From Armatimonas sp. (GTDB taxonomy: Bacteria; Armatimonadota; Armatimonadia; Armatimonadales; Armatimonadaceae), in contig NZ_JANNYP010000607.1 of NCBI RefSeq assembly GCF_031410135.1, forward strand, positions 1-20,558: a stretch of DNA of 20,558 nucleotides, written 5' to 3'. Below, piece by piece: positions 824-20,558 of this stretch. A program made the position numbers and the translations under genes. The notes beneath the pieces were generated by a model that was not told where the DNA came from, ran no database searches, and worked only from the letters and a program-made list of their open reading frames with translations. Each line of letters opens with the position of its first letter. Positions within the stretch are counted from its first letter, which is position 1.

Positions 824-2608
824 ATGAACACACTCTATCCTCTCACCTCTCTCGTCGCGCTGGTAGCGGCTCCTGCTCTGGCGCAGGCACAGACAGGTGC
901 TACGTTTTTCGGTCAGACGGAGGTGCATGTGGTGCATATTGCCCTCACCCAAGAGCAGTGGGACGGCATGAGCCCCACCCGTCCACAGGGCTTCGGGCCG
1001 ATGGACTTGCAGTTCCCTGAGGTCAAGTCTACGATCGCCGTCGATGGCAAAGAGTATGTCGTCGGGCTGCGCTTTAAGGGCAATTCAAGCTACATGAGCA
1101 GCTCCCGTGGGCTCAAGCGCCCCTTTAAGATTGACTTTAATCAGCACGTCAAGGGCCAAAGCCACGAAGGGATCACCAAGCTCAACCTCAATAACAACTT
1201 CTCGGACCGCACCCAGATTCGCGAGACCCTCGCCTACGAGATCTTCCGACGGATGGGTCTTCCCTCGCCGCGCACGACCATGGCAAAAGTGGGGATCACG
1301 CTAGGCGGGGAAGAAAAATCCCTGGGGCTCTACACCCTGGTGCAGCAAGTGGACTCCAGCTTTCTCAAAGAGCACTATGGCACGGGCGAGGGCATGCTCC
1401 TCAAGCCGGAGGGAGCCCGTGGGGGAATCACCTATCTGGGCGACGACTGGTCGCGCTACGAGACAGGCTACGACCCAAAGGGTAAACCAACCCCACAAGA
1501 GAAAACGCGTCTGATCGCCTTTGCCAAGCTCGTTCACCAGTCCGACGAGGCAACGTTCCAGAAAGAGATCGGCAATTTTCTGGACACCGAGGGCTTCGCG
1601 AAGTTTTTAGCCGCCACGGCGGTGACATCTAACGGCGACAATATGTTTGCGATGGGCCATAATTTTTATCTTTGGCTCAATCCCAAGACCAATAAATTTG
1701 TCTACCTGCCGTGGGACTTAAACATGGCCTTTGGGGGCTTCCCCATCGGCGACCCGATTCACCTATCGGTAAAGAAGCCCTACAACGGCGAGAGCAAGCT
1801 CACGGATCGTTTTCTGGCGATCCCCGAGTTCCGAGCGGCGTACAACAAGTCTTGTCGTGAGGGTGCCAAGATCATGACGGAGCTAGATGCCCTCCATGAC
1901 TCCACGGCAGCAGCAGCCAAGCCCATCATGGCCTTCGATCCTAAAGACTCTGGCGGAGGCTTCGGTCCAGGAGGCCCTGGTGGAGGAGGCCCCGGCGGGC
2001 CAGGCGGCGGTGGCCCCGAAGGTCAGGGTGGCCCGGGCGGGGGACGGCGTGGGGGCGGTGGGCCGGGTGGCCCCGGAGGGCCAGGCGGCATGGGTGGCAC
2101 CAACGACCTCAAGACCTTCTTTGCGCAGCGCTCTGCCTCTGTAATTGCACAGCTTGACGGCAAAGAAGAGGGCATTATCCCCCAAAGCGGCGGCCCCGGA
2201 GGGCCAGGCGGCCCGGGTGGCTTCGATCCCGCCCAGATGCTCGGAACAAGCTTCCTCCAGCTCACGGGGGCAGGTGAGGCTCCGACGCTCACGGCCTTCA
2301 ACGATGCCTGGAAGAAAGGCGCGGCATTCTGCGACAAGAATAAAGATGGCAAGCTGACCCAAGAAGAGCTAAACGCGGGCGTGAGCTCCGTCCTCGGCGG
2401 TGGCTTTGGGCCAGGGCAGTTTTTAGGGCCGCAGATTTGGAGCGCTCTGAAAGCCAAAGATAGCGTTCCGGTGGCGACCTTCACTGCAACGATGGCGCAG
2501 TGGGGCGTAAGCTGGGATAGCAACAAAGACGGGAAACTCACGGTTTCGGAGGTGGGGGCGGGCCTGATGCAGGTACTTCCCCCACCCAACGCCGGAGGAG
2601 GGTTCTAA
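824..2608 (+). CDS. Secreted CotH-family (spore-coat-protein-H-like atypical kinase) protein with Gly/Pro-rich low-complexity linker and two C-terminal EF-hand Ca-binding loops
   Basis: N-terminal signal peptide MNTLYPLTSLVALVAAPALAQAQ. Central region (FKIDFNQH...KLNLNNNFSDRTQIRETLAYEIFRRMGLPSPRTTMAKVGI...LGLYTLVQQVDSSFLKEHYG) matches my recollection of the CotH kinase-like domain. Gly/Pro-rich runs follow (GGPGGGGPGGPGGGG...). Two 12-residue loops, DKNKDGKLTQEE (nt 2333-2368) and DSNKDGKLTVSE (nt 2516-2551), fit the canonical EF-hand pattern D-x-N-x-D-G-x-[ILV]-x-x-x-E. Confidence 0.65.
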   Translation: MNTLYPLTSLVALVAAPALAQAQTGATFFGQTEVHVVHIALTQEQWDGMSPTRPQGFGPMDLQFPEVKSTIAVDGKEYVVGLRFKGNSSYMSSSRGLKRPFKIDFNQHVKGQSHEGITKLNLNNNFSDRTQIRETLAYEIFRRMGLPSPRTTMAKVGITLGGEEKSLGLYTLVQQVDSSFLKEHYGTGEGMLLKPEGARGGITYLGDDWSRYETGYDPKGKPTPQEKTRLIAFAKLVHQSDEATFQKEIGNFLDTEGFAKFLAATAVTSNGDNMFAMGHNFYLWLNPKTNKFVYLPWDLNMAFGGFPIGDPIHLSVKKPYNGESKLTDRFLAIPEFRAAYNKSCREGAKIMTELDALHDSTAAAAKPIMAFDPKDSGGGFGPGGPGGGGPGGPGGGGPEGQGGPGGGRRGGGGPGGPGGPGGMGGTNDLKTFFAQRSASVIAQLDGKEEGIIPQSGGPGGPGGPGGFDPAQMLGTSFLQLTGAGEAPTLTAFNDAWKKGAAFCDKNKDGKLTQEELNAGVSSVLGGGFGPGQFLGPQIWSALKAKDSVPVATFTATMAQWGVSWDSNKDGKLTVSEVGAGLMQVLPPPNAGGGF

Positions 2609-2610
2609 AA

Positions 2611-3273
2611 ATGAGCATCGAGGGCGAGATTGTCCGCGCCGGTTTTGAGCGCAAGTACCTGGTTCCTGAGAGCCTCGCGGAGAGCCTGCTCAGCGCCGTG
2701 CAAGCGATCCTCCCTCCCGATCCGTACGGGGGACGCTACTCGGTGGCAAGCCTCTATCTCGATACTCCTGACCTGGCTTCCTATCGCCGCGAGGTGCAGG
2801 GCAAGTGGCGGCTACGGCGCTATAGCACCACCGAGACGGTCTTTGCAGAGTTCAAGGCTAAACCGGAGCCAGGAAAAGTCCATAAGCGCCGCAGTGCACT
2901 CTCGTCAGATCAGCTCCCGGCGAGTCTCCCCGGCTGGTTTCAGAAAGCGATCCATAAACAAAGCCTCTCTCCCACACGCCTCGTCACCTACACCCGAGAT
3001 GCCTTTGTCGGGGAGCTGGGGGGCGAGGAAGTTCGCCTGACACTGGATCATGCCGTCCAAGCAAGCTCCCATCAGAGCCTCCACTTCCCCCCGTTTGACG
3101 GGGGCCAGGGGGTAGGATTCCCCCTCACCGAGGGGCGCATCCTAGAGATCAAGTACGAGTTCGCACTGCCCGCAGAGCTGGCAAAGCTCACCTCGGAGCT
3201 CGGCCTGCTCCCGGAGTCGTTCTCCAAGTACCGCACCGCGATAGAGAAAATCCCCCCGTCGGACGGGGGCTAG
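2611..3273 (+). CDS. VTC / CYTH-like (triphosphate-tunnel-metalloenzyme-related, polyphosphate-polymerase-type) domain protein
   Basis: Starts 3 nt after the CotH stop, so it is coupled to it. N-terminal FERKYLVP resembles the CYTH/VTC ExExK-type strand. VTC-domain genes are recurrent neighbours of cotH-family genes (recalled knowledge). Assignment by motif only. Confidence 0.45.
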   Translation: MSIEGEIVRAGFERKYLVPESLAESLLSAVQAILPPDPYGGRYSVASLYLDTPDLASYRREVQGKWRLRRYSTTETVFAEFKAKPEPGKVHKRRSALSSDQLPASLPGWFQKAIHKQSLSPTRLVTYTRDAFVGELGGEEVRLTLDHAVQASSHQSLHFPPFDGGQGVGFPLTEGRILEIKYEFALPAELAKLTSELGLLPESFSKYRTAIEKIPPSDGG

Positions 3274-6680: not shown

Positions 6681-9600
6681 CTACCCGCCGACCTTCACTT
6701 CGCCAATCGTCACGGTTTCTTTGTTCTGCGTGAGCCGTAGCGTCAGGTGCTGGCGCTTCTCGTTGGGCCGCCCGAAGTTGGTGATGACCGTCGCCTGAAC
6801 CGTAGTGCCGCCGGTGAGCTTCTGCTCGCCACTACCATAGTAGTTGGTCTGGATTTTATAGACACCGGGCACGGCGCGGCGGATCATGTAGTCCTCGGGG
6901 CCGTAGCCACTGGTGAAGTCTTTCGAGAGCTTGCCACCCACTTGTGTTAAGTTGTAGCTGTAAAAGCACTCCTCGCCCGTCGGCTCGATCACGTGCAAGT
7001 CCATGTCCGAGCTGTCCGAGTCCCAGGTCATGACAATGCGCACGTCGCACGCCTGGTTAGTGAGCAGGCGGCGGTCGAAGCGATGGCGAGCCAGCGGGTA
7101 CTTGGCGATAATCGCATTGGCCTCGGTGAGAGCGATGACCTCGATGCCCTCGAAGCGCTCCCAGTGGCGCATGACGACCGTATGGAGCAGCTCCAGCGCA
7201 CGCTCGGTCTGGCCCAAGTCGGCGAGCACGAGCGCTAAGTCGCGGTAGCTCTGCGGCTCCTCGGGGCGCATCTGTAGAATTTTCCCAAAGAGCCCGGCAG
7301 CGATCTGTTTCTCTCCCAGCTGTGCCAGTCGGTGGGCCAGCACGCGCAGCAGCGCCGCGTCCTCGATCTGCAAGTCCGCCAGCGACGACAGCACCCGCAA
7401 GCCTTCGTCGCGGCGGCCCAGCTGCAAGAGCAGCTCCGCACAGTCCAGATAGAACGCAGGTGTTGCCGCGTAGCTCTCGCGCTCTGCAAGATAGGCCGCA
7501 TAGGCTCCCGTCGCCCCCGCCGCCTTGAGCCGCTTCAAATACGGTGCATCGGGTGTCCACGCCTTAATGGTGACGCCCAAACCACTCTCCTCAGAACCAG
7601 TGGCGAGAATATTACCATCTTTAGCGACCATAACTCCCTGAGTCCGTCGGCTCAACGTGTAATCCCAGGCGGGTGTTGGCTCTGGCTGTGCGGTTCGAAG
7701 GCGTACTTCCTCACGTGCAGAAGTGGCCAGGGGTAGTAGAGCGGGAGCGGCGGGGCGAATTTCTCGTGTTACGGCACGATCAGCGACGACTCCGCCCAGA
7801 CTCCCACTTAAATCCGAGCCACCTCGTCCATTGCTCCCACTTCCGACTCTTGGGGAGGCGGCATGTTTCTTCTTCTCGTCTTTTGGTTTTGCAGTGCGCG
7901 GGAACTCTTTCTTCCACCAAGCCATGCGCTCGTTCCACTGCGCCAAGACGCTCTGGAGCTGCTTTTCGTCCTTGGTGCGCTTTGTGTCTTTCTCCGTTTT
8001 CTCTCGGCCCAGCCAGGCATCGTAGAGCGCGGGGCGGGTGCGGGGCGGGGTGATATTGTGCTCGACATACTGCTCCAGGGACTCCAGAACCAGCAGCGAC
8101 GTTCCCGGCGTGACCAGGTTAAAGTCTCGGCCCAGCGACAGTAGCGCCTCGTGGTTTTCATCGGGCAGCAGCGCCAGACGCTCCACACGCTGCGCGGCCC
8201 ACTGGCGGGCGATGAGGCCATGAGCCGTGGTAGTGGTGCGCTTGACCGTCACCGTGCGCCGGGAGACGGGCTGTCCCCCCATGCCATAGACCAGCGTGAG
8301 GTCGGCGCTATCCGTGAGCAAGCGGCCCGTGACAAGCCCGTCTTGCCACTGAAGATCTGTAGCGCCCTGGCCCTCCACGCGAAGTAGCGTCACGCCTGGT
8401 CTGCCAAGAGCCTCGGGGTGGGTGCCGTCGCTCAGCGCACCGCCGGTCTGCTCACAGAAGTAGCGTAGCAGGCCAAAGTTTGTTCCCGACGCAGTGGCGA
8501 TGGCGTAGATAGGCGTGTTGGCCGCAATGGTCGGGAGTCCCTGCCCAAGATTGGAAAAACCATCCGTAAACCAGAGCCAGTAGTCGCGGTGGGGCAGGTT
8601 CAGAGCCCCCAGTGCCGTTCCCCCATCGAAGGGCTGCGCTTTCAGAAACGCGATCAGCTCACGGGCATCGCCGTTGGCAATCTTGAACTTGCGCGGCTTC
8701 TCGGCCCGCTCCCGCAAGACAATCACCTCAACAGCAACGGATTTTCCGGCCAGGTGCTGCCCCAACAGCGTCAGCTCCTTGCCAATATCGGCCTTGTGGC
8801 GGCTCAGGCTCGCATCCCAGACAATCCCGATGTCACGAGGCGCTACCCGCTCAAGCTTCACCTGCGGCGGCGTGTCGGCGATGCAGAAAAACGTCTCCGG
8901 GCGCGGGCTACTGGCACGCATGAAGCTCTCGCTTGCCACCATGGGCTCACCACTCTCGGGAACCGTGATCGTTATATCCTGCTCGGCGCTGTTTTCCAGA
9001 ACGGCCTCAGCAGTCAGGTGCCCCTCGACGCGCCCGAGCTCCAGTGCTCGCTTGCCCAGAAGCACACGGGCCTGAGGTGCGCTCAACACCTCCACGGTCA
9101 CTTTCCCCTCGGGAATATTGGTTCCAAAGCGCAGTGGGATGGTTTTCTTATCCGTGCTGTAGGTAATGCGCACCGTGCGAGCACCTTCGGCGGGAAACGG
9201 GTAGATGCGCGTCCGAAAGACATTGCCCTCCAGCCGCTCCAGAAGGCCGGGGTCTACGCCCTTGCGCACTTCTTTCTCAAAGACCACGCGGGCTTTCTCT
9301 CTCTCCACCGGCACTGCGTCCACCAGCTCGCCTTTGACATCCAGCGCAAACCCGGAGACCGCCGCGCCCTCGGGCAAGGGAAAAATCAGCTCACCCTCCA
9401 GAACGCGCTTGGACGGATTGCGAAACGTGAGCGTCTGCGTCACTTGCGTTAGCGACCCTACCACCGTGATCTGAACATCGGCCCGCTCCAGCCGTACAGG
9501 AGCCTCTTTCGTCTCTTTTTCTTCGCCCTTCACCGTAAACTGAATCGGGGCAAGCGGCGGCGCTTGCTGGTGCGCAGCAGGCGCAAATTGTGTTGTGGCC

Positions 9601-9692
9601 GCAAGGGCACAGAGGGATAGGGCAAAGGCAGTGAGGCGCATCGAATTGTTTTCTCCTGCGCTTTTGTCCTCCGCAACGGCCAAAAGGTTCAT
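6681..9692 (-). CDS. Large secreted multidomain protein: N-terminal VIT domain, vWA domain, central TPR repeats, conserved C-terminal beta-rich domain (YfaP/DUF2135-like, tentative). Probable true start at ATG 9641.
   Basis: A signal-peptide-like MRLTAFALSLCALAATTQFAPAAHQ begins at the internal ATG (9641-9639), which is preceded by GGAGAA 9 nt upstream. VIT-like N-terminus (IQFTVKGEE...VLEGELIFPLPEGAAVSGFALDV...NVFRTRIYPFPAEG). vWA-like block (IGIVWDASLSRH...PFDGGTALG...LWFTDGFSN). TPR-like helical repeats (AYAAYLAERES...LGRRDEGLRVLSSLADL...ERALELLHTVV). C-terminal segment DVRIVMTWDSDSSDMDLHVIEPTGEECFYSY...GPEDYMIRRAVPGVYKIQTNYYGS. Confidence 0.6.
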   Translation of the reverse strand: MNLLAVAEDKSAGENNSMRLTAFALSLCALAATTQFAPAAHQQAPPLAPIQFTVKGEEKETKEAPVRLERADVQITVVGSLTQVTQTLTFRNPSKRVLEGELIFPLPEGAAVSGFALDVKGELVDAVPVEREKARVVFEKEVRKGVDPGLLERLEGNVFRTRIYPFPAEGARTVRITYSTDKKTIPLRFGTNIPEGKVTVEVLSAPQARVLLGKRALELGRVEGHLTAEAVLENSAEQDITITVPESGEPMVASESFMRASSPRPETFFCIADTPPQVKLERVAPRDIGIVWDASLSRHKADIGKELTLLGQHLAGKSVAVEVIVLRERAEKPRKFKIANGDARELIAFLKAQPFDGGTALGALNLPHRDYWLWFTDGFSNLGQGLPTIAANTPIYAIATASGTNFGLLRYFCEQTGGALSDGTHPEALGRPGVTLLRVEGQGATDLQWQDGLVTGRLLTDSADLTLVYGMGGQPVSRRTVTVKRTTTTAHGLIARQWAAQRVERLALLPDENHEALLSLGRDFNLVTPGTSLLVLESLEQYVEHNITPPRTRPALYDAWLGREKTEKDTKRTKDEKQLQSVLAQWNERMAWWKKEFPRTAKPKDEKKKHAASPRVGSGSNGRGGSDLSGSLGGVVADRAVTREIRPAAPALLPLATSAREEVRLRTAQPEPTPAWDYTLSRRTQGVMVAKDGNILATGSEESGLGVTIKAWTPDAPYLKRLKAAGATGAYAAYLAERESYAATPAFYLDCAELLLQLGRRDEGLRVLSSLADLQIEDAALLRVLAHRLAQLGEKQIAAGLFGKILQMRPEEPQSYRDLALVLADLGQTERALELLHTVVMRHWERFEGIEVIALTEANAIIAKYPLARHRFDRRLLTNQACDVRIVMTWDSDSSDMDLHVIEPTGEECFYSYNLTQVGGKLSKDFTSGYGPEDYMIRRAVPGVYKIQTNYYGSGEQKLTGGTTVQATVITNFGRPNEKRQHLTLRLTQNKETVTIGEVKVGG

Positions 9693-10720: not shown

Positions 10721-11944
10721 ATGCTGTTTTTGGCTCTGCTGATCCTGATCGCCTTGCTGGTCTTGCTCTTTACGCCGATCCTTCCGATGCGACGGCGACG
10801 TGGGGGTGTGGCGGGTTTTCCGTTCGTGACGGTGGGGCTTCTGGCGATCAACACGATTGTTTTCCTCGGGAGCATGAGCAGTGGCGAGGAGTTTATCCGG
10901 CAGTGGGCACTGGTGCCCAACGACCTTCAGCTTGCTTCCCTCCTGAGCTATGCCTTCCTCCACGGCGATATTTTTCATCTCCTAGGCAACCTGATCACGC
11001 TCTATGTGATCGGAGTGCACGTGGAGGAAGCGCTGGGCAACCTCCCCTACCTACTGGCCTACCTGGCCGGGGCGCTGGTGGCGGGACTCGGGCACGCGGG
11101 AGCGGTTCTGCTCTTTTTTCCCGGCTCCGCAGGGACTCCCATGGTCGGTGCCTCCGGGGCGATCTTCTGTGTCTTAGGGCTCTTTGCCGTGCGTTTTTGG
11201 CGAACTCGCGTCCGGCTTTTCTGGATTCCAGCGGTTCCGGCAGCCGTGGCAGTCGGGATTGTGATGGTTCTCCAGATCTTCATGGCGATTCGCTCTTTAG
11301 TGGACCATGGAGCGGACCAGGTGGCCTATGCCGCGCACCTGATTGGCTTCTTCTTCGGCTTTGGGATCGCCTTCCCTCTCCGCGTCTTGGAGCAGAGCGC
11401 CCGTGAGTACGGGATCGAGGACGCCGAGAAGGCACTGGCGGCGGGCGACCTGACCACGGCGGCAGGCTACTACCGCGAGCTACTCGTCCGCACGCCGACA
11501 GACGGCGGCCTGGCCCACACACTCGCGCTGGTGCATGTCCGCCTCGGGGAGCAAGAGGCGGCGCACCGCTACTTCACGCAGGCTCTGGACTTGTTCTCCA
11601 AGCAAGGAAACGCCGCCGCGGTGGCCCGAATCTACAGCGATGCTCAGACCAATCTGTTGCGCGTCTCCCTTCCGGTGCGCCTCTTGCAGCGGGTGGCCAG
11701 CGCCTGTGAAGATGCCCAGCAGTACGAGCTGGCCCGTCAGGCGCTGGCCAATCTCTGCCGCGACTTCACCCACACCACCGATGCTGAGCTAGGAATGCTA
11801 AAATTGGGTAAACTGCACCTACAGAAGCTAGGACAGCGCGACAACGCCTTAGCGATCTTTGCGGAGTTCCTACGGCTCTACCCCACGTCTGAGTGGGCAA
11901 ATCATGTTCGAGGATTGATTACGGAAAACCAGAATGCTTCTTGA
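10721..11944 (+). CDS. Rhomboid-family intramembrane serine protease fused to C-terminal TPR repeats
   Basis: Multiple TM segments. Rhomboid signature HGDIFHLLGNL (TM2 region), catalytic Ser in GASGAIFCVLG and catalytic His in AHLIGFFFG. C-terminal ~170 aa has TPR-like repeats (AAGYYRELL...AHTLALVHVRLGEQEAAHRYFTQAL). Confidence 0.8.
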   Translation: MLFLALLILIALLVLLFTPILPMRRRRGGVAGFPFVTVGLLAINTIVFLGSMSSGEEFIRQWALVPNDLQLASLLSYAFLHGDIFHLLGNLITLYVIGVHVEEALGNLPYLLAYLAGALVAGLGHAGAVLLFFPGSAGTPMVGASGAIFCVLGLFAVRFWRTRVRLFWIPAVPAAVAVGIVMVLQIFMAIRSLVDHGADQVAYAAHLIGFFFGFGIAFPLRVLEQSAREYGIEDAEKALAAGDLTTAAGYYRELLVRTPTDGGLAHTLALVHVRLGEQEAAHRYFTQALDLFSKQGNAAAVARIYSDAQTNLLRVSLPVRLLQRVASACEDAQQYELARQALANLCRDFTHTTDAELGMLKLGKLHLQKLGQRDNALAIFAEFLRLYPTSEWANHVRGLITENQNAS

Positions 11945-12701
11945 CCCCGAGTTTTTGCAAAAGCTGGCCACAGTGCTCCCCAACAGCGAGACGGGTGAGG
12001 CACACTCTAGCCGCACCACGCGCCGCACTCCCCGAAGCGACTCTCTCTTCCGGCTGGGGCGACGTGCCGAGCCCACCCGAAAATCCTCCCGCTTTGAGCG
12101 CATGCTGGCTCGCCTGCTGCGGCTGGAGACCACCTCGCTTCATGTTTTACTGGACGCCTCACTGGCCATGACGTTCGCGGGCTACACTCCCCCCGAGCCC
12201 TCGCAAAAGTTCGATTTTGCCCGGCGCTTCACCGCCATGCTTGGCTATGCCACCACCCAGCGCGACCTGCGCTTTGAGGTCACCGCCCTCTCTCCCGCGC
12301 GCGGCACACGGAGCCCCATTGTCCAGCACCCCGAGGACATCTCCCAGCTCCTAGACTATCTGGAGAAGCTCCGGGCGGGCGGGACGCGCAACTTTGCCTG
12401 GGCGCTCCGCAAGCGGATGCGCCGTAGCTCGCGACGCTCGCTGTTTATCCTGCTCTCCGACTTTCGGGATCGCAACTGGGAGTGGGGTGCCCCTGCGCTC
12501 TTAACGGGTGAAGCCCGTGTGGTGCTGGTTCATCTGATGGACCGCTCCGAGCTGCAAGAGAGCAGCCACGGACTACGGCTCGAAGACGACATCCGCCAGC
12601 GCCTCGCCGAGCTTGCCCAGCGCTACCAGCTAGAGTATCTCATCGTCCCCACTGACACGCCCCTCGAAGAAGCCTTTCTCCACGCCGCCGGGGATCGCTA
12701 A
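11934..12701 (+). CDS. vWA-like / DUF58-like domain protein (degenerate MIDAS)
   Basis: Overlaps the rhomboid gene by 11 nt. HVLLDASLAM (DxSxS-like), AGGTRNFAWAL (GGT...AL) and LFILLSDFRD (vWA strand plus acidic residue) resemble the vWA fold as seen in DUF58 proteins. The upstream DUF58 GDD/IDW region is not recognisable. Confidence 0.4.
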   Translation: MLLDPEFLQKLATVLPNSETGEAHSSRTTRRTPRSDSLFRLGRRAEPTRKSSRFERMLARLLRLETTSLHVLLDASLAMTFAGYTPPEPSQKFDFARRFTAMLGYATTQRDLRFEVTALSPARGTRSPIVQHPEDISQLLDYLEKLRAGGTRNFAWALRKRMRRSSRRSLFILLSDFRDRNWEWGAPALLTGEARVVLVHLMDRSELQESSHGLRLEDDIRQRLAELAQRYQLEYLIVPTDTPLEEAFLHAAGDR

Positions 12702-13823: not shown

Positions 13824-14477
13824 ATGGACGAGATCACGGTTCTGCTCACCGACGATCACGCGATTGTGCGTCAGGGAGTTCGGGCGTTTCTGGAGACCCA
13901 GTCGGATATTAAAGTCGTGGGTGAGGCGGGCAGTGGCGAAGAGGCCATCCAGCTCTGTGAGGCCCTCGCCCCGGATATCGTGCTGATGGACCTACTCATG
14001 CCCGGAATGGGGGGAGTGGAAGCCACACGGCGGGTAAAGGCGATTAGCCCTCGCACCCGGGTGATTGTCCTAACCAGTTATCATGAAGATGAGCACGTGC
14101 TTCCCGCGATTCGTGCAGGGGCACTCTCCTACTTACTCAAAGACGTGGCGGCGGGTGAGATTGCCACGGCGATTCGCAAAGCAGCAGCGGGGGAAGTCAC
14201 CCTCTCTCCGGCGATTGCCGCGCAGATGATGAAAGCAGTCACGGGGGAACGTAAGTCACCCGAGGCCCCTGGCCCGGAGTCGCCGTTGACAGTCCGGGAG
14301 CGGGAAGTGATTCGTCTGATTGCTGATGGGCTCTCGAACACCGAGATCGCAGAGAGGCTGTTCCTCTCGGAGAAAACCGTCAAGAGCCACGTCAGCAATA
14401 TCCTCGCTAAGCTCCATGTCACAGACCGCACGCAGGCGGCGGTCTATGCATGGCGCGAAGGCATCATGACCCGCTAG
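13824..14477 (+). CDS. Response regulator, NarL/FixJ family (REC domain plus LuxR-type HTH)
   Basis: ATG immediately follows the kinase TAA. REC motifs LLTDDH, phospho-acceptor region IVLMDLLMPGM, KAISPRTRVIVLTS. C-terminal LuxR HTH LTVREREVIRLIADGLSNTEIAERLFLSEKTVKSHVSNILAKL. Confidence 0.9.
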   Translation: MDEITVLLTDDHAIVRQGVRAFLETQSDIKVVGEAGSGEEAIQLCEALAPDIVLMDLLMPGMGGVEATRRVKAISPRTRVIVLTSYHEDEHVLPAIRAGALSYLLKDVAAGEIATAIRKAAAGEVTLSPAIAAQMMKAVTGERKSPEAPGPESPLTVREREVIRLIADGLSNTEIAERLFLSEKTVKSHVSNILAKLHVTDRTQAAVYAWREGIMTR

Positions 14478-15226
14478 CGACCGAAGCCACCGAAGCCGCC
14501 CATTCCGCCTCCCATACCACCGCCCATACCGCCCATACCACCGCCCATACCACCCATCATACCGCCGCCACCCATGCCACCCATGCCGCCGCCCATGCCA
14601 CCCATGCCGCCGCCCATGCCACCCATGCCGCCGCCCATCATGCCGCCCATGCCGCCGCCCATGCCGCCCATGCCGCCACCCATGCCACCCATGCCGCCGC
14701 CCATGCCGCCCATGCCACCACCACCCTGCATAGCTCGACTGGAGAAGGAGACATTAATAATCCCTCCTAATATCTGGCTTAAGTCCATCGGATCAAGATA
14801 GGTGAGGCTAATGCGCTCGTAGGCCGCATTTGGCCGAATGATTTCATCGGGTCCTATCGGAGCAGGTGCTGAGTCCTGAGGATTAGGATTGATCGCACGA
14901 GGCTTGACAATCCAGACACCGTTTTCTTTGGTGTAGGTAAGAGGCACACTAGCTGCACGCATGATCAGCTTCAGTGCATTCTCAAAGGGCTGCTCTGTAA
15001 TCTTAAGCGTGACAAATCCCACAACATTATTGTCAATGATATAGTTATTAATGCCTGCTTGCTTGAACGCAGCCTCAATCGTAGAACGAATGGGCGAGTC
15101 TTGCAGGTCAAAAGTAACATTATTTAATTTTTCTTGTGCAAATGCGCTCATAGGAAGAACAATTGCAATAGCAGATAACACCGCCCCAGCGGCAAATTTC
15201 CCGGTAAAATTCACTTTTTTCCTCAT
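14474..15226 (-). CDS. Sec-secreted STN/secretin-N-like domain protein with ~90-residue C-terminal Gly-Met repeat tail, (GGGMGGM)n
   Basis: Signal peptide MRKKVNFTGKFAAGAVLSAIAIVLPMSAFA|QEK. NVTFDLQDSPIRSTIEAAFKQAGINNYIIDNN..VTLKITEQPFENALKLIMRAASVPLTYTKENGVWIV matches the secretin-N/STN short domain pattern (VxLDLxDxPLxxALxxLAxQxGLNxxIDPxVxGxVTLxLxNVPxxQALDLILRxNGLxYxxEGNIIxV, recalled). The C-terminal tail is only G and M (plus a final GFGGFGR). Its stop codon overlaps that of the convergent response regulator (CTAG). Confidence 0.7.
   Translation of the reverse strand: MRKKVNFTGKFAAGAVLSAIAIVLPMSAFAQEKLNNVTFDLQDSPIRSTIEAAFKQAGINNYIIDNNVVGFVTLKITEQPFENALKLIMRAASVPLTYTKENGVWIVKPRAINPNPQDSAPAPIGPDEIIRPNAAYERISLTYLDPMDLSQILGGIINVSFSSRAMQGGGGMGGMGGGMGGMGGGMGGMGGGMGGMMGGGMGGMGGGMGGMGGGMGGMGGGGMMGGMGGGMGGMGGGMGGGMGGFGGFGR
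14490..14740. repeat. Tandem 21-nt-period DNA repeat (unit approximately CCCATGCCACCCATGCCGCCG on the plus strand) encoding the Gly-Met tail
   Basis: Units read directly from sequence. Early copies use CCATACC, later copies CCATGCC. The period corresponds to the 7-aa GGGMGGM unit. Confidence 0.8.
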
Positions 15227-15329
15227 CTTCTAAATACGAACAGTTTACTACTCGTATTCTAAACAAATTGGACACGAGGAAAGTTCATTCCTTCAAATTA
15301 TTTTTATTTTTTTCTAAAAAACAAATCGT

Positions 15330-15860
15330 CTAAAGCGACGAAAGTACATTTAAAAGCACGGGTAGCTGAAGATACGGTAGCTCAGGCGAGGTGAGTATCC
15401 CTGAGTAGAGGGCCGGTGGCGTTCCAGGAGGCACTTGAAGAATCAACTGTACAGTTTGAATGGCATCGGGCGCTAGCTGAAAAACCGCTGAAGAGGGCAG
15501 AAGTTGCTCGGGTTCAATACGATTTCCCGCCGCGCTCAGCAGCGGCGTACTTCGCAGGATAAACGTCACCGGGTCGGCTTGGTCGTTGTGCAGACGAAAG
15601 GGCAAGGCAACGTGCTCCCCCGCACGAACAGGCAGAGCGGGCATGAGGCTGTGGCGTGCCAAGGTCGGCAAGGCTCCTCGTGCGACCTCGGTGTCTAAGA
15701 TGGAGGAAGCCACTTCCAAGAGATCTTGCGGAAGCTCGGGCGCTGCCGCAGGCTCGGTCGGCTCGATAGCGTCACTAGGCTCCAGAGGCACCAGCGTGCG
15801 GCTCCGGTAGGTAGCCAAAGGGGTACAAACGTCGAGGGGTTTTCGTCGGTAGGTCTGCAT
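15330..15860 (-). CDS. Hypothetical protein, last gene of the encapsulin-associated operon
   Basis: Its ATG (15860-15858) lies 1 nt after the polyprenyl synthase TAA (TAAGATG). No recognisable motifs. Pro/Leu-rich; C-terminal half is beta-like (HVALPFRLHNDQADPVTFILRSTPLL...AVFQLAPDAIQTVQLILQVPPGTPPALYSGIL). Confidence 0.45.
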   Translation of the reverse strand: MQTYRRKPLDVCTPLATYRSRTLVPLEPSDAIEPTEPAAAPELPQDLLEVASSILDTEVARGALPTLARHSLMPALPVRAGEHVALPFRLHNDQADPVTFILRSTPLLSAAGNRIEPEQLLPSSAVFQLAPDAIQTVQLILQVPPGTPPALYSGILTSPELPYLQLPVLLNVLSSL

Positions 15861-16890: not shown

Positions 16891-18755
16891 GACAGGACAT
16901 CCTCAGGCATCAGGGGCAGGATATGCACGCGTCCGGTGCGGCTCTTGGGCGCTACGTTATTAAGACCAAGCTGGCTGAGATGAGCTAAAAGCTGCTGGCT
17001 CACGGCAGTAGGCGCTAGCGGGGCGGCTCCGGGTGTGCCTTGATTGAAGACCTGCACCGCGCTCTCGATCAGCGACATCGTGGCAAGCCCGAGGCGCACT
17101 TGGGAGTCGTCCCACGGCAGGCCCTGCTGGTAGCGCAGGCGGTCTAGGGCACGCCAGGGTTCAAACAGCTCCGGCTCATGAAGCTTCCAGAGCTGGCACG
17201 GTGTGGCGCTTACGCCCGAGGCGCTAAGAATTCCATTGACGGCACGACGGGCGGCTTCGTTAGCCCCCTCCATGGTCGCCAAGTCCGTGTAGGTCCGCAC
17301 GTAGTCGGAGGCGAGAAAGAGATTGGGAATCGCGGTCACTGCCTCGGGCCGCAGCCGCCAGGTATTGATCAGATTCACCAGAAGCGGCTCTTTGTTCTCC
17401 AGCACGCCGCTGGCATTGCGCTTGATATCAGGATCTAAGAACCAGCCGTGCAGATGGCGATCCTGAAGAATCTCTTGGCCGTTGATATTGATATTGATAC
17501 TGCGCTTGAGCTGCTCCCAGACCTCGGCCTTGATCTCCTCGCGCGTACACTGCTTGGCGGTCTTTCCATTGAAGCCGAGCGCCTCCCACTCGGAGATATC
17601 CACAGAGAGAATGCCTTGGATCGTGCCATCGCCATAGTGGCTCAAGTCAATCTCAGGCCAGAACTGTTTTTGCGACACGGACGTCAAGGCCCACGGCGAG
17701 TCAATATAGATCGTGTGGCCGTGTGTGAGCGGAGCATCTTTGGTAAGGTAGAGCTGGAGACCGTTCATCCAGTCCACACCGCCTTGGCTCAAGGGAAGGA
17801 GATTCCCCAGCGATGGATCGGCGTGAAGTAACTCGGGGGTAAGAAGCTGGGCCATGCGCTCGACAGGAACCGCGCAGATATAGTAGTCCCCGACGGCCTC
17901 AAACGTCCGCCCGTGCTGCGTGACCTGTGCACTGGTGATCTTGCCATCGGTGCAGCGAATCGCCTGAAGCTCGGACTCAAAGTGGTAGACCACGCCGCGC
18001 TGCGTCAGATACGCAAGCCAAGGGCCAATCCAGACCTCGTTGGTCGGGCCATTGAGAAGCCTATCGCTACTGGTACCGGGCTCCACCACATCAAAGAGGA
18101 GCTGTACTAAGATATCCCCGATGGTTTTTGTGCTCGCGAGGCGCGCTTTAGCCGCGACCAGCGAGCGCGTGATCCCAAAGCCTAAGAACTTCTGGTAGGC
18201 CACCGAGCGCGTCTCCGCTCCGATAAAGTCCCACCAGTCGAGCTTCTCGTACTCGTCGAAGCGCCGCTCCTGACAGGATGTGATAATCTGCCAGATCTTC
18301 GAGCCAAAGAACGTCAGCTCCTCGGGCGTTAATCCCAAGTCGTTGCCAAAGAGCAAGCTCAAGTCATCGAGAACCACCCGAATGTCTTCCAGCGAGCGCG
18401 GCGAGCGTGAGGGGAGCACAAACGAGTTTCTCTCAAAGCGGGCCATCTCAATGCGGGTCGTGTCTACCAAGTTATCTACCACGGAGCTACTCGCCCCGTA
18501 GGGGATGCGGCTCATCGTGTCGATAACATGCTTATAAAACCGAGGGAAGAAGCGGAAGCCGTGCTCACCGGGCAGGTCTTTTCGCATCCCGTCAGGCCCT
18601 GTCGTCGCAGAGCCCGGCACCGGGATGCTCCGGGCCTTGCCACCGGGAATGCTCTGGCGCTCGTAGACCTCCACGGCAAAGCCCCGCTCGATCAGCTCGT
18701 GCGCAGCGCTTAGCCCGGCGACTCCCCCGCCTAAAATGACGACTTTCTTCTTCAC
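16887..18755 (-). CDS. FAD-dependent oxidoreductase of the amine-oxidase / phytoene-desaturase (CrtI-like) superfamily, with ~110-aa C-terminal extension
   Basis: N-terminal dinucleotide-binding motif KKKVVILGGGVAGLSAAHELIERGFAVEVYERQSIPGGKARS. C-proximal FAD-binding motif LFLASDYVRTYTDLATMEGANEAARRAVNGIL, typical of flavin amine oxidase/CrtI enzymes. Another ~110 residues follow this motif. GTG start overlaps the encapsulin stop (GTGA). Confidence 0.75.
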   Translation of the reverse strand: MKKKVVILGGGVAGLSAAHELIERGFAVEVYERQSIPGGKARSIPVPGSATTGPDGMRKDLPGEHGFRFFPRFYKHVIDTMSRIPYGASSSVVDNLVDTTRIEMARFERNSFVLPSRSPRSLEDIRVVLDDLSLLFGNDLGLTPEELTFFGSKIWQIITSCQERRFDEYEKLDWWDFIGAETRSVAYQKFLGFGITRSLVAAKARLASTKTIGDILVQLLFDVVEPGTSSDRLLNGPTNEVWIGPWLAYLTQRGVVYHFESELQAIRCTDGKITSAQVTQHGRTFEAVGDYYICAVPVERMAQLLTPELLHADPSLGNLLPLSQGGVDWMNGLQLYLTKDAPLTHGHTIYIDSPWALTSVSQKQFWPEIDLSHYGDGTIQGILSVDISEWEALGFNGKTAKQCTREEIKAEVWEQLKRSINININGQEILQDRHLHGWFLDPDIKRNASGVLENKEPLLVNLINTWRLRPEAVTAIPNLFLASDYVRTYTDLATMEGANEAARRAVNGILSASGVSATPCQLWKLHEPELFEPWRALDRLRYQQGLPWDDSQVRLGLATMSLIESAVQVFNQGTPGAAPLAPTAVSQQLLAHLSQLGLNNVAPKSRTGRVHILPLMPEDVLS

Positions 18756-19687
18756 TTTTGCTTGGTGCTAGGGTCGGCCAGCTCAAAGGAGCAAATCGCT
18801 TCCGTTTCCTTAACTCGGTAGGTGAAGCGCTCGTAGACACGGAAGTGGTACTGGGCTTCGTCGGAGATATTGAGAAACTGAACCGTGGGCGGCGTGGCGA
18901 CGACGAGATCAATGGGATCGCCGCAGAGGGAGACCACCACACCACAGCGAGGCGGCAAGATCCCGGAGCGCTGGAGCGGCATCCCCAGCATCGGGGTGAT
19001 GCGATCACTGGGCAGCACCAGCGAGCCACGCTCGGGCGTAAAGGCCTCGACATAGGCCTGATCCCCCAGCACACAGGCAAACGGCCCGAGATGGCCATTT
19101 TGCTCCAACGCGGTGATCGCGGCCACGATGATGCGGACGATACTCTCCGAAAACGGGGGCTCCGCGACGGGTATCCGATAGCCTGTGGGTCGAAGCTTCA
19201 AGCCCTCCTGGAATAGCCCCTCTATCTTCTGTCCACTCGTGACAAGACACTGCTTGGGTACTAAAATATCGTTGAGCTCCTCACGGCTCGGGTTACGCCT
19301 AGGCAGCCCCCGAAAGGTAATCGCGTCCTCGGCTCGTGCCAGGATATTGGCCCCCCGTCGAAAGGCCAGCAAGGCATCCTCGATCCGCTCCTGCGCCATC
19401 TGCTGCTGCTTGAGATAGACATGTACCGTGAGCGAGCAGAGCGTCAAGGTCTCCACATCATCCACACGCAGGGGGGTACCCGCCTCGTCAAACTCCAGCA
19501 GGTTCTGACGCCGCACCACTTCCGCACTCTTTGCCAGTGGGCCATAACACGGAAGAAACGAGCCCGCCACGCTGGACTTAGTGACTTCTTCCTGAACCGT
19601 CTGATTGATCTGGTTCCACTGATCTTGCGACCACTCAATTTGCCGACTAGGACTCTCCATAGCTTTTACGCCTTTCTTTCTTACCAA
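18752..19687 (-). CDS. Encapsulin nanocompartment shell protein (HK97-fold, Family-1-like); probable start ATG at 19660 (302 aa)
   Basis: By-eye alignment to recalled Family 1 sequences. SQDQWNQINQTV fits T. maritima LTEKQWQEIDNRA. LEQNGHLGPFACVLGDQAY fits M. xanthus EncA LNEQGHFGPYAVVLSPRLY. CGVVVSLCGDPIDLVVA...YHFRVYERFTYRVKETEAICSFEL fits EncA SGVVVSTGRENMDLAVS...HPFRVLEALLLRIKHPDAICTL. Length is typical. The ORF-track start is a TTG (19687); an in-frame ATG lies at 19660. Confidence 0.8.
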   Translation of the reverse strand: MVRKKGVKAMESPSRQIEWSQDQWNQINQTVQEEVTKSSVAGSFLPCYGPLAKSAEVVRRQNLLEFDEAGTPLRVDDVETLTLCSLTVHVYLKQQQMAQERIEDALLAFRRGANILARAEDAITFRGLPRRNPSREELNDILVPKQCLVTSGQKIEGLFQEGLKLRPTGYRIPVAEPPFSESIVRIIVAAITALEQNGHLGPFACVLGDQAYVEAFTPERGSLVLPSDRITPMLGMPLQRSGILPPRCGVVVSLCGDPIDLVVATPPTVQFLNISDEAQYHFRVYERFTYRVKETEAICSFELADPSTKQK

Positions 19688-19702
19688 AGCGATTAGGAAG
19701 AA

Positions 19703-20558
19703 TTACCGAACCGCATAAACATCATACGAAATAACAAAATATTCTTTATAAACAACGCCTATTGCAATCGTAAAAAGCCTATTCATCCAAATATAGTCCC
19801 TATTCGATGTTAAAAACCGACAATTCAAACGAGCAGTCGGCTTTTCAGGCCAATTATTGTCTATAAAATTCTTAAATCCATTAATCCCTAATTCAAAAAC
19901 GCCTGTTGCCGTCATATAGATCAAAGCACCGTCATCTGTCTCAAGACAGGCATGTATATCAGGATCACCAATGCCGTCTCTGCGAATGGTCATCCAGTCT
20001 CCCCCGTGCTTTTTCACGACACCTCGTATTAAAGGCCCGGAAAATATACCTTCTTCCACAAACCAGTTCACTTTCAGGCCTTCCGGGGTATCACCAAAGA
20101 CTTCCAGGTTCTGTGTCAAATTTACGGTCAAGGAAAAAAGATAGTCCAGGTGAAAGGGAAAACGTGTCTGCGTAGGAGTCCGTAAAGTAAGCTCATTTTC
20201 TCTGGCTGTCGTCAGTTCTGATTTCATTTGAAACGACGATGGGAGTTGCTGATAGGTCGCAATGTCGGGCACCTGGCGACCGCCACAGTGAAAGACAGGT
20301 ACGTACTCCACAAGGCACTCTTGGCCGACATCGGGAAAGCTTGCCTGGTAGTACTGTGTGGCGCTGGCATAGTCAGTGCGCACTAAGACGGCGGGGATTG
20401 TCTGTGTCCGACCACTGTCAATACGACAGTGGACGACAACTCGGTTTCCCGGCTTGATCGGTGAGACGCCGACCGTGAGGGTCTGAGGCGACGGCAAAAA
20501 CTCACCATTCGCGGAGACCGGCGCGGGTGCATCGCTCGTGCCATACCAGAGGGTCAAG
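19703..20558 (-). CDS. DUF3237-like beta-barrel domain protein. The AT-rich DUF3237 unit probably starts at the internal ATG 20228 (175 aa); the GC-rich upstream 105 codons are of doubtful coding status and the ORF runs off the window.
   Basis: LTVNLTQNLEVFGDTPEGLKVNWFVEEGIFSGPLIRGVVKKHGGDWMTIRRDGIGDPDIHACLETDDGALIYMTATG...NRLFTIAIGVVYKEYFVISYDVYAV matches the recalled DUF3237 pattern (TPEG.R.i.pi.GG.f.GP.lrG.VlpGGaDW...rpDG...lDaRYtL.TDDGAlIyv...G...). Base composition switches sharply at about nt 20250, right at the in-frame ATG. The start at 20557 is only a TTG created by the window edge. Confidence 0.55.
   Translation of the reverse strand, partial: LTLWYGTSDAPAPVSANGEFLPSPQTLTVGVSPIKPGNRVVVHCRIDSGRTQTIPAVLVRTDYASATQYYQASFPDVGQECLVEYVPVFHCGGRQVPDIATYQQLPSSFQMKSELTTARENELTLRTPTQTRFPFHLDYLFSLTVNLTQNLEVFGDTPEGLKVNWFVEEGIFSGPLIRGVVKKHGGDWMTIRRDGIGDPDIHACLETDDGALIYMTATGVFELGINGFKNFIDNNWPEKPTARLNCRFLTSNRDYIWMNRLFTIAIGVVYKEYFVISYDVYAVR

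Follow-up and report, generated by a model that had tools for sequence, protein, structure and literature searches.

What is the function of an exported bacterial protein that ends in a long repeat of glycine and methionine? The question is raised by a minus-strand gene in a 20,558-nt stretch of DNA from Armatimonas sp. (assembly GCF_031410135.1, contig NZ_JANNYP010000607.1, positions 1 to 20,558; hereafter the window). An earlier reading of the sequence, referred to here as the original prediction, recognised a secreted STN domain followed by the Gly-Met tail and named as possible roles of the tail a sponge or chaperone for Cu(I)/Ag(I), a methionine-based oxidant sink or a flexible tether. 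The analysis reported here places the gene in a context which that prediction had missed. The encoded protein is a truncated paralogue of the N-terminal part of PilQ and belongs to a family found in the type IV pilus operon of Armatimonadota. It probably descends from a truncated copy of the 5' part of pilQ and serves the type IV pilus machine as an accessory subunit in the periplasm; its disordered Gly-rich tail would take part in a machine-wide mesh or tether.

Results

Domain structure of the window protein

The open reading frame (ORF) encodes, in order, a signal peptide, an N0/STN domain, a linker, the start of an N1 domain and an 83-residue tail (Table 1). Export of the protein, as originally proposed, was supported by inspection of the N-terminus, MRKKVNFTGKFAAGAVLSAIAIVLPMSAFA/QE, which reads as a Sec signal peptide (by eye ...LPMSAFA/QEK, the slash marking cleavage). 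A30 and Q31 are nearly invariant in the family alignment, and the AlphaFold2 model contains a helix at residues 9-22. This model was calculated from an alignment of 71 homologues, whereas a 15-sequence alignment gave a mean predicted local distance difference test (pLDDT) score of 60 with the N0 domain at only 50-83. In the model used, residues 36-112 follow the order beta-alpha-beta-beta-alpha-beta-beta with a pLDDT of about 90, and the fold is superposable on solved secretin N0 domains. The best Foldseek match was the N0 domain of Neisseria meningitidis PilQ, 4AR0 (E 1.3e-5, root mean square deviation 1.8 Å, 78 columns, 26% identity), followed by the N0 domains of LspD, XcpQ and GspD. The NCBIfam PilQ model TIGR02515 (positions 3-75) matched the protein with an E value of 2e-7 and the HofQ model with 3e-6, the matching region being residues 36-111. 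A profile built from 15 family members and searched against the PDB retrieved solved PilQ N0 domains at E values of 9e-8 to 1e-5 and then HofQ and GspD. No Pfam family matched the window protein at E<=0.1, the STN model included, and for this reason the assignment was drawn from the NCBIfam, PDB profile and fold searches; precomputed PF07660 matches are present in several homologues. These results are in agreement with the single STN/secretin-N-like domain originally recognised and identify it as an N0 domain.

The segment following the linker, YERISLTYLDPMDLSQILGG, is strongly conserved, and the family profile aligns it with strand 1 and helix 1 of the N1 domain of Pseudomonas aeruginosa PilQ. 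The residues aligned are those at the start of that domain, RELIQVNYAKAADIAKLFQS, and WTKIDIKYLPPRDLVKLL of the PilQ encoded beside a family member in L001, one of the related loci compared here. I139, L141, D145, D148, L149, G154 and R164 are invariant in the family alignment. Based on this alignment, the window protein is composed of N0, half of N1 and a Gly-rich tail. Strand 2, strand 3 and helix 2 of N1 are absent and the Secretin_N domain is thus incomplete. The secretin pore domain PF00263, present in the neighbouring PilQ of L001 and L004, is also absent, the window protein ending at residue 250. Since it has neither a pore domain nor a full N1, the protein is not a secretin proper.

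A family encoded in the type IV pilus operon

With the protein minus its tail as the query (E<=1e-3), 147 homologues of 158-262 residues were retrieved, and all named ones are from Armatimonadota. Mapping of representative genomes with tblastn located the family in a type IV pilus (T4P) operon in 18 related loci, with the gene order pilM, PilN-like, PilO-position (bitopic), lipoprotein, N0-tail family, PilQ-type secretin, aroC, aroK and aroB. The operon pilM product matched TIGR01175 with 234 bits and the PilN-like protein has the N-terminal motif LRINLLPAY. P0014 and P0108, which are more distant homologues, lie in an unambiguous context of this kind. Pfam, NCBIfam and a profile search against the PDB gave no significant match for the products of the three genes from pilM to the N0-tail gene, and the names PilN, PilO and PilP are therefore positional. 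A literature search found nothing specific describing the N0-tail family or Gly-rich tails on pilus alignment proteins.

The window protein is colinear with the N-terminus of the adjacent PilQ of L001 from N0 through helix 1 of N1 (E 7e-5). The N1 domain of the downstream PilQ is split by a long disordered insertion with a Gly-rich stretch of about 60 residues, for example GGFGGMGGMGGGMGGMGGGRGG, and Pfam Secretin_N matches the adjacent PilQ only at model positions 39-69, after the insertion. In the variants P0118 and P0119 of the family the sequence extends beyond the Gly-rich region to strands 2-3 of N1 (GINNLIANQAGDAILVEY; compare GITNIISHDADNALLVEY of PilQ). The simplest history suggested by these alignments is that the N0-tail family arose when the 5' part of pilQ was duplicated and the copy was cut short within the Gly-rich insertion. 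It would be a clean example of gene birth, in which partial duplication of a secretin gene was followed by dispersal of the paralogues. A split or frameshifted pilQ was also considered as the origin and was rejected because a signal peptide and an N0 domain are both present in the downstream PilQ itself.

N0-like domains have multiplied greatly in this phylum (L031 5711-6817; L035 9317-11104; P0121-P0127, P0163, P0184 and P0223), and some of these proteins finish in a short secretin-like C-terminus with the conserved end ...RVSL. One of the 33 loci, L024, carries a label from outside Armatimonadota; there the family member lies on a contig of 1.7 kb with a very high AT content (GC of 0.27 in the flanks) that was assigned to 'uncultured Cytophagales'; this is probably a binning error or a low-GC member of Armatimonadota.

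The Gly-Met tail and its variation in the family

The 83 residues of the tail comprise 58 Gly, 22 Met, 2 Phe and 1 Arg, with nine MGGM and nine MGGGM units. The original prediction had recognised these units, the disordered Gly/Met character and the resemblance to the (GGM)n tail of GroEL. Its estimate of about 90 residues with about 26 Met was slightly high, and its description of the tail as purely Gly and Met holds for the dominant composition and fails at the end, where the family-conserved GGFGGFGR is found. No published description of an STN-domain protein with such a tail was found, as it had stated.

The DNA encoding the tail is a tandem repeat of 9/12/21/42 nt at 14495-14722, the 42-nt period being present in 3.7 copies with an 89% match. 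An error of sequencing or assembly in this repeat had been named as a finding that would undo the prediction. An artefact is unlikely, since the reading frame stays open across the repeat and leads to the conserved end motif and the stop codon, and since the tails of orthologues are near-identical in three independent assemblies (L002, L003 and L005), with in-frame indels as the only differences. Two plus-strand ORFs, 14450..14770 and 14574..14801, only mirror the repeat and are not genes. Public assemblies returned no record when searched for the exact sequence of the window protein.

The tails of 117 close homologues are 8-97 residues long (median 63) and always Gly-rich, and the C-terminal end is GGFGG(G/F)GR(NF/GF) in 96 of 120 close homologues. 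The Met content is at least 15% in 62 of the 117 and at most 2% in 20, with Phe/Leu/Ile or Gln/Asn/Ser instead. The operon copies of L028, L029 and L033 have Met-free tails of Gly, Phe and Leu. A profile search of 1.84 billion representatives retrieved 777 clusters at E<=1e-10, in many of which 2-6 N0 domains follow one another in tandem, and Met-type tails occur in only 5 of the 148 best representative clusters of this wider family. Since Met is scarce in so many homologues and wider clusters, Met-richness is a trait of some clades and not of the family. The original prediction had allowed that homologues with tails not conserved as Met-rich would speak against it, and because Met is not conserved this is largely what was found.

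Two tandem family paralogues are present in an Armatimonas metagenome-assembled genome (MAG) at L040 7001-8520 (same region as L026), the first with a Gly/Leu/Phe tail and the second with a short, aromatic-rich tail (...GGWGGFGSFYSFGGLSGGYVL).

Gly-rich segments across the pilus machine

Gly-rich segments, defined as at least 50% Gly in 20 residues, were counted in 497 kb of loci. They are present in 83 of 96 ORFs of five pil families, compared with 11 of 1293 other ORFs of at least 90 residues, and in 25 of 33 ORFs of the N0-tail family. The PilN-like, PilO-position and lipoprotein components finish in Gly-rich low-complexity tails and PilQ carries a Gly-rich loop. The tails of the three proteins upstream of the N0-tail gene are composed of Gly/Met/Pro/Ala in most lineages and of Gly/Phe/Tyr/Pro in others. 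The Gly-rich segments contain Met in most operons; all five components are Met-poor in L028, L029 and L033, with Phe/Tyr/Leu instead. Such tails appear to be a hallmark of the pilus machine in Armatimonadota.

The window copy is a dispersed paralogue under purifying selection

The genome closest to the window is the Armatimonadota MAG LacPavin_0818_WC50_MAG_59_12 (Lac Pavin), which has three copies of the family. The copy at L005 is syntenic with the window and 89% identical, that at L006 lies inside a pil operon and has 81% protein identity to the window copy, and that at L018 is 54% identical with a Met-free Gly/Gln/Ser tail. DNA homology between the window and L006 covers the coding sequence (CDS) only, from near the signal peptide to the stop codon, which indicates that only the gene was copied. 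The ratio of nonsynonymous to synonymous substitution rates (dN/dS) is 0.11-0.14 against the orthologues of L005 and L002 (dS about 0.5) and 0.06-0.11 against the operon copy. The window orphan copy is therefore under purifying selection. Other orphan copies occupy unrelated contexts.

The 100-nt leader is 87-92% identical to that of the orthologues of L005 and L002, compared with 74-76% at third codon positions; homology stops at about -100 and synteny ends beyond the leader. The hairpin and T-run listed in Table 1 close the upstream gene and thus make the tail gene a separate transcription unit. A sigma-70 consensus scan found no promoter-like site upstream, and an Rfam scan of the gene and leader gave no match. 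The leader contains an imperfect inverted repeat, GAAGGAA-N5-TTTCCTC (minus strand), and is possibly a regulatory element not yet characterised.

Discussion

Proposed role in the pilus machine

We favour a mechanism that starts from the canonical copy, between the PilP-position lipoprotein gene and pilQ, of which the window copy is a dispersed, separately transcribed paralogue; the Gly-rich tail corresponds to the Gly-rich insertion that splits N1 in full-length PilQ. The N0 domain of other secretins forms the lowest periplasmic ring and docks the homology region (HR) domain of PilP/GspC. The N0 domain of the window protein may insert it into the periplasmic part, or ring system, of the machine. 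There the tail, the N1 loop of PilQ and the Gly-rich tails of three further components (PilN-like, PilO-like and the lipoprotein) would jointly act as a flexible, weakly self-adhesive mesh or tether. Its conserved GGFGG(G/F)GR end would be a docking-like motif. Met would serve as a flexible hydrophobic 'sticker', exchangeable with Phe, Leu and Tyr in other lineages, rather than as a metal ligand.

Several points weigh against this proposal. The window contains no T4P gene in its 20.5 kb and its copy is outside any pil operon, so that the link of this copy to the machine is by paralogy alone. The names PilN, PilO and PilP rest on gene position, an INLLP-like motif and a lipobox, and the strand-helix N1 remnant was modelled at low confidence (pLDDT 50-63). 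A strict co-variation of tail composition across the machine components proved only partly true, the STN tail of L027 having 28% Met and the other four components 0-5%. Tail length ranges from 8 to 97 residues among close relatives with some members nearly tail-less, a variability that argues against a strict structural requirement and fits neutral drift of the repeat.

Alternative explanations

Because the length is so variable, the main rival is a functional N0 protein with a functionless tail, in which a slippage-prone, C-terminal tandem repeat of 21/42 nt drifts neutrally in length and composition. This explanation is unlikely, although it accounts for steps of 7 residues among near-identical proteins (P0025, 194 residues; P0027, 201; P0029, 215; P0030, 222; P0031, 229; P0033, 257), for the almost tail-less members P0023, P0081 and P0114, for the wide variation in composition across the family and for the fact that the repeat is a tandem DNA repeat. 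It does not lead one to expect that most ORFs of the family, and almost every PilN/O/P/Q protein of these operons, keep a Gly-rich segment when less than 1% of other ORFs have one. The tail also persists between orthologues at a dS of about 0.5, and the presence of the conserved motif 3' of the variable repeat in most close homologues indicates that the C-terminus is read and constrained. Another possible role is that of a decoy or regulator: the free N0 domain would compete with that of PilQ for the PilP-like HR domain, and orphan copies would modulate assembly or stoichiometry of the machine rather than build it. N0 is a known docking surface for the HR domain of PilP/GspC, the GspC-GspD complex 3OSS is among the fold matches, several paralogues with different tails occur per genome and orphan copies own a conserved upstream region. 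We nevertheless consider such a role improbable, since the family is a fixed operon member in 18 loci, the position expected of a stoichiometric structural subunit, and no evidence of differential regulation was found.

The two roles originally proposed for Met are less probable still. The tail, as a periplasmic sponge or chaperone for Cu(I)/Ag(I), would use its nine MGGM (MX2M) and nine MGGGM (MX3M) units as Mets motifs in an extracytoplasmic protein, and disordered, Met-rich periplasmic metal binders are known, such as SilE (PMC5008109) and the Met-rich domains of CueO (PMC11494321). Of three properties by which a Mets-motif copper protein can be judged, the spacing is present; a genomic link and conservation of Met are not. 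No cop, cus, HMA or multicopper-oxidase gene, nor any other copper or silver homeostasis gene, is near the gene in the window or in six related loci with precomputed Pfam labels, and the genomic association is with type IV pili. The regulon box sought upstream was likewise not found: the spacer contains no CueR-type dyad, and window-wide counts were those of chance. The tail has no His, Asp or Cys co-ligands, and Phe/Leu or polar residues replace Met in many homologues, operon copies included. A copper or silver function is thus very improbable, and a tempting misannotation is corrected: dense MX2M/MX3M spacing alone does not make a copper protein. Hardly credible, finally, is a sacrificial sink for periplasmic hypochlorite or reactive oxygen species recycled by MsrP, for which MrpX of Azospira suillum is the precedent (PMC4436054). 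The 22 Met residues in an exposed, disordered periplasmic tail are compatible with it; neither the window nor any of the six annotated loci has msrP/msrQ (yedYZ) or another Msr gene beside the family member, and Met is not conserved in the family.

Comparison with known systems

The window protein shares with PilQ (4AR0/4AV2 of N. meningitidis, 6VE2 of P. aeruginosa and 6W6M of Vibrio cholerae) the N0 fold and strand 1 and helix 1 of N1, and its family lies in the pilM...pilQ-aroCKB cluster, immediately 5' of pilQ. It differs in having its own signal peptide, a Gly-rich end and 250 rather than more than 540 residues, and in lacking PF00263, a complete N1 and AMIN domains. A precedent for its architecture is GspDN1-3 of the mitochondrial type II secretion system, which are stand-alone secretin N-domain polypeptides, 'half' N-domains included (Horvathova et al. 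2021, PMC8134430), and occur alongside a secretin that has a gene of its own. An interaction of GspDN1 with GspD is reported from yeast two-hybrid assays (PMC8134430). These proteins, unlike the window protein, are eukaryotic, derived from a type II system and contain N1-N3 (Secretin_N) rather than N0, with no Gly-rich tail reported; in the system described here the full PilQ keeps its own N0. DotD of the Legionella Dot/Icm type IVB system also is an envelope-machine subunit with a small stand-alone N0-like domain and a disordered segment, and its structures 3ADY and 7MUD are among the fold matches with weak scores only. It is, however, a lipoprotein of another secretion system and has no Gly/Met repeat.

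As for the tail, a ring-forming subunit with a disordered Gly-Gly-Met repeat at its end is known in GroEL, whose C-terminal (GGM)4M tail, however, is cytoplasmic, about 13 residues long compared with 83, and not homologous. The GroEL tails of all subunits gather inside the ring, and by analogy the tails considered here may be pooled in the same way. CusF, CopC/PcoC, the Met-rich insert of CueO, SilE and MrpX resemble the window protein in being Met-rich, often disordered and periplasmic with MX2M/MX3M spacings; the window protein lacks a link to Cu, Ag or Msr genes, conserved Met and His/Asp co-ligands, and its N-terminal domain is of the pilus-secretin type. FG-nucleoporins have a similar grammar. 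Here, too, many subunits of a ring-shaped conduit carry disordered chains that are rich in Gly and have hydrophobic or aromatic residues at wide intervals (GGF, GGL, GGM, GYPGG). The window protein belongs to the bacterial periplasm and has no homology to FG-nucleoporins, and the comparison is pure analogy.

A more speculative extension, to which we give little weight, draws on both analogies. The Gly-rich chains with sparse Met/Phe/Tyr/Leu stickers on the PilN-, PilO- and PilP-position proteins, the N0 protein and its orphans and the PilQ N1 loop could form a cohesive phase, like that of FG-nucleoporins or GroEL tails, inside the periplasmic cage. It might act as a gasket or permeability barrier round the moving pilus, or as assembly glue, with tail-variant paralogues (Gly/Met, Gly/Phe/Leu, Gly/Gln/Ser) tuning its properties. 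The known periplasmic parts of the T4P machine are folded domains, although the machine is among the best-studied bacterial nanomachines; this phylum has what is probably an extra, undescribed subunit, a stand-alone PilQ N0 module, and in addition a Gly-rich low-complexity segment on every periplasmic component. If the Gly-rich segments are functional, as a seal, lubricant, wall tether or assembly glue, they would represent a new design principle for envelope-spanning machines and a rare machine-specific disordered phase in the bacterial periplasm.

Coordinates and base composition

Table 1. Features of the Gly-Met tail gene in the window and of the corresponding region in related pil operons.
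Feature	Location	Strand	Basis or remark
Complete CDS, 250 residues and stop codon	14474..15226	minus	ORF list, ATG start; orphan paralogue of the Armatimonadota pilus-operon 'N0 + Gly-rich tail' gene
Sec-type signal peptide, residues 1-30, predicted cleavage after AFA	15137..15226	minus	sequence inspection
N0/STN-like domain, residues 36-112	14891..15121	minus	AlphaFold2, Foldseek, PDB profile, NCBIfam
Pro-rich variable linker, residues 113-135	14822..14890	minus	poorly conserved alignment columns; pLDDT about 46-60
Secretin N1 remnant (strand 1 and helix 1), residues 136-164, YERISLTYLDPMDLSQILGGIINVSFSSR	14735..14821	minus	conservation and alignment
Disordered Gly/Met tail, residues 168-250	14477..14725	minus	composition, motif counts, pLDDT below 50 for residues 162-246
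Conserved C-terminal motif GGFGGFGR, residues 243-250	14477..14500	minus	family conservation
Upstream AT-rich stretch (about 100 nt), presumed promoter and 5' untranslated region	15227..15326	minus	conserved with the gene
Terminator-like hairpin and T-run at the end of the upstream gene	15326..15341	minus	sequence
Three proteins between pilM and the N0 gene with Gly-rich tails	L001 5382-7963; L004 4949-7864; L006 5727-8265; L028 7494-9985		

The N-terminal part of the gene has a GC content of 0.45, also at third codon positions (GC3), and the tail one of 0.72; GC3 of neighbouring genes is 0.60-0.76. The contrast between an AT-rich 5' half and a GC-rich repeat, and the AT-richness of the upstream 100-nt spacer, were correctly noted in the original prediction. 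The low-GC coding part, 14726-15226 on the minus strand, is found also in the orthologues and the operon paralogue (0.46-0.47, compared with flanks of 0.56-0.61). For this reason recent horizontal transfer, which was considered as the source of the low GC, is not established.

Gene neighbourhood of the window copy

The neighbours of the gene are a convergent HisKA_3 kinase and LuxR-type regulator, a DUF58 protein, a rhomboid-TPR protein, a 176-residue protein of unknown function, a polyprenyl synthase, an amine oxidase and an encapsulin. At 14474-14477 the tail gene (minus strand) and the gene of the convergent LuxR-type response regulator (13824..14477, plus strand) share the palindrome CTAG, in which their stop codons overlap, an arrangement conserved in L002, L003 and L005. 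The rhomboid-TPR fusion and the DUF58 gene following it lie at 10721-12701 (plus strand), and synteny with L002 and L003 extends over the block of rhomboid, DUF58, kinase and regulator genes. The gene at 6681-9692 (minus strand) encodes a large protein that combines a VIT domain, TPR repeats and DUF2135. At 18752-20557 (minus strand), an encapsulin-like gene (Linocin_M18) adjoins a DUF3237 gene, upstream of an amine-oxidase-type flavoprotein and the polyprenyl synthase, and this region may be an encapsulin cargo or isoprenoid cluster. Positions 824-3273 (plus strand) encode a CotH-kinase-like protein with an EF-hand and a Gly/Pro-rich segment of its own at residues 370-431, and a VTC-domain protein is encoded next to it.

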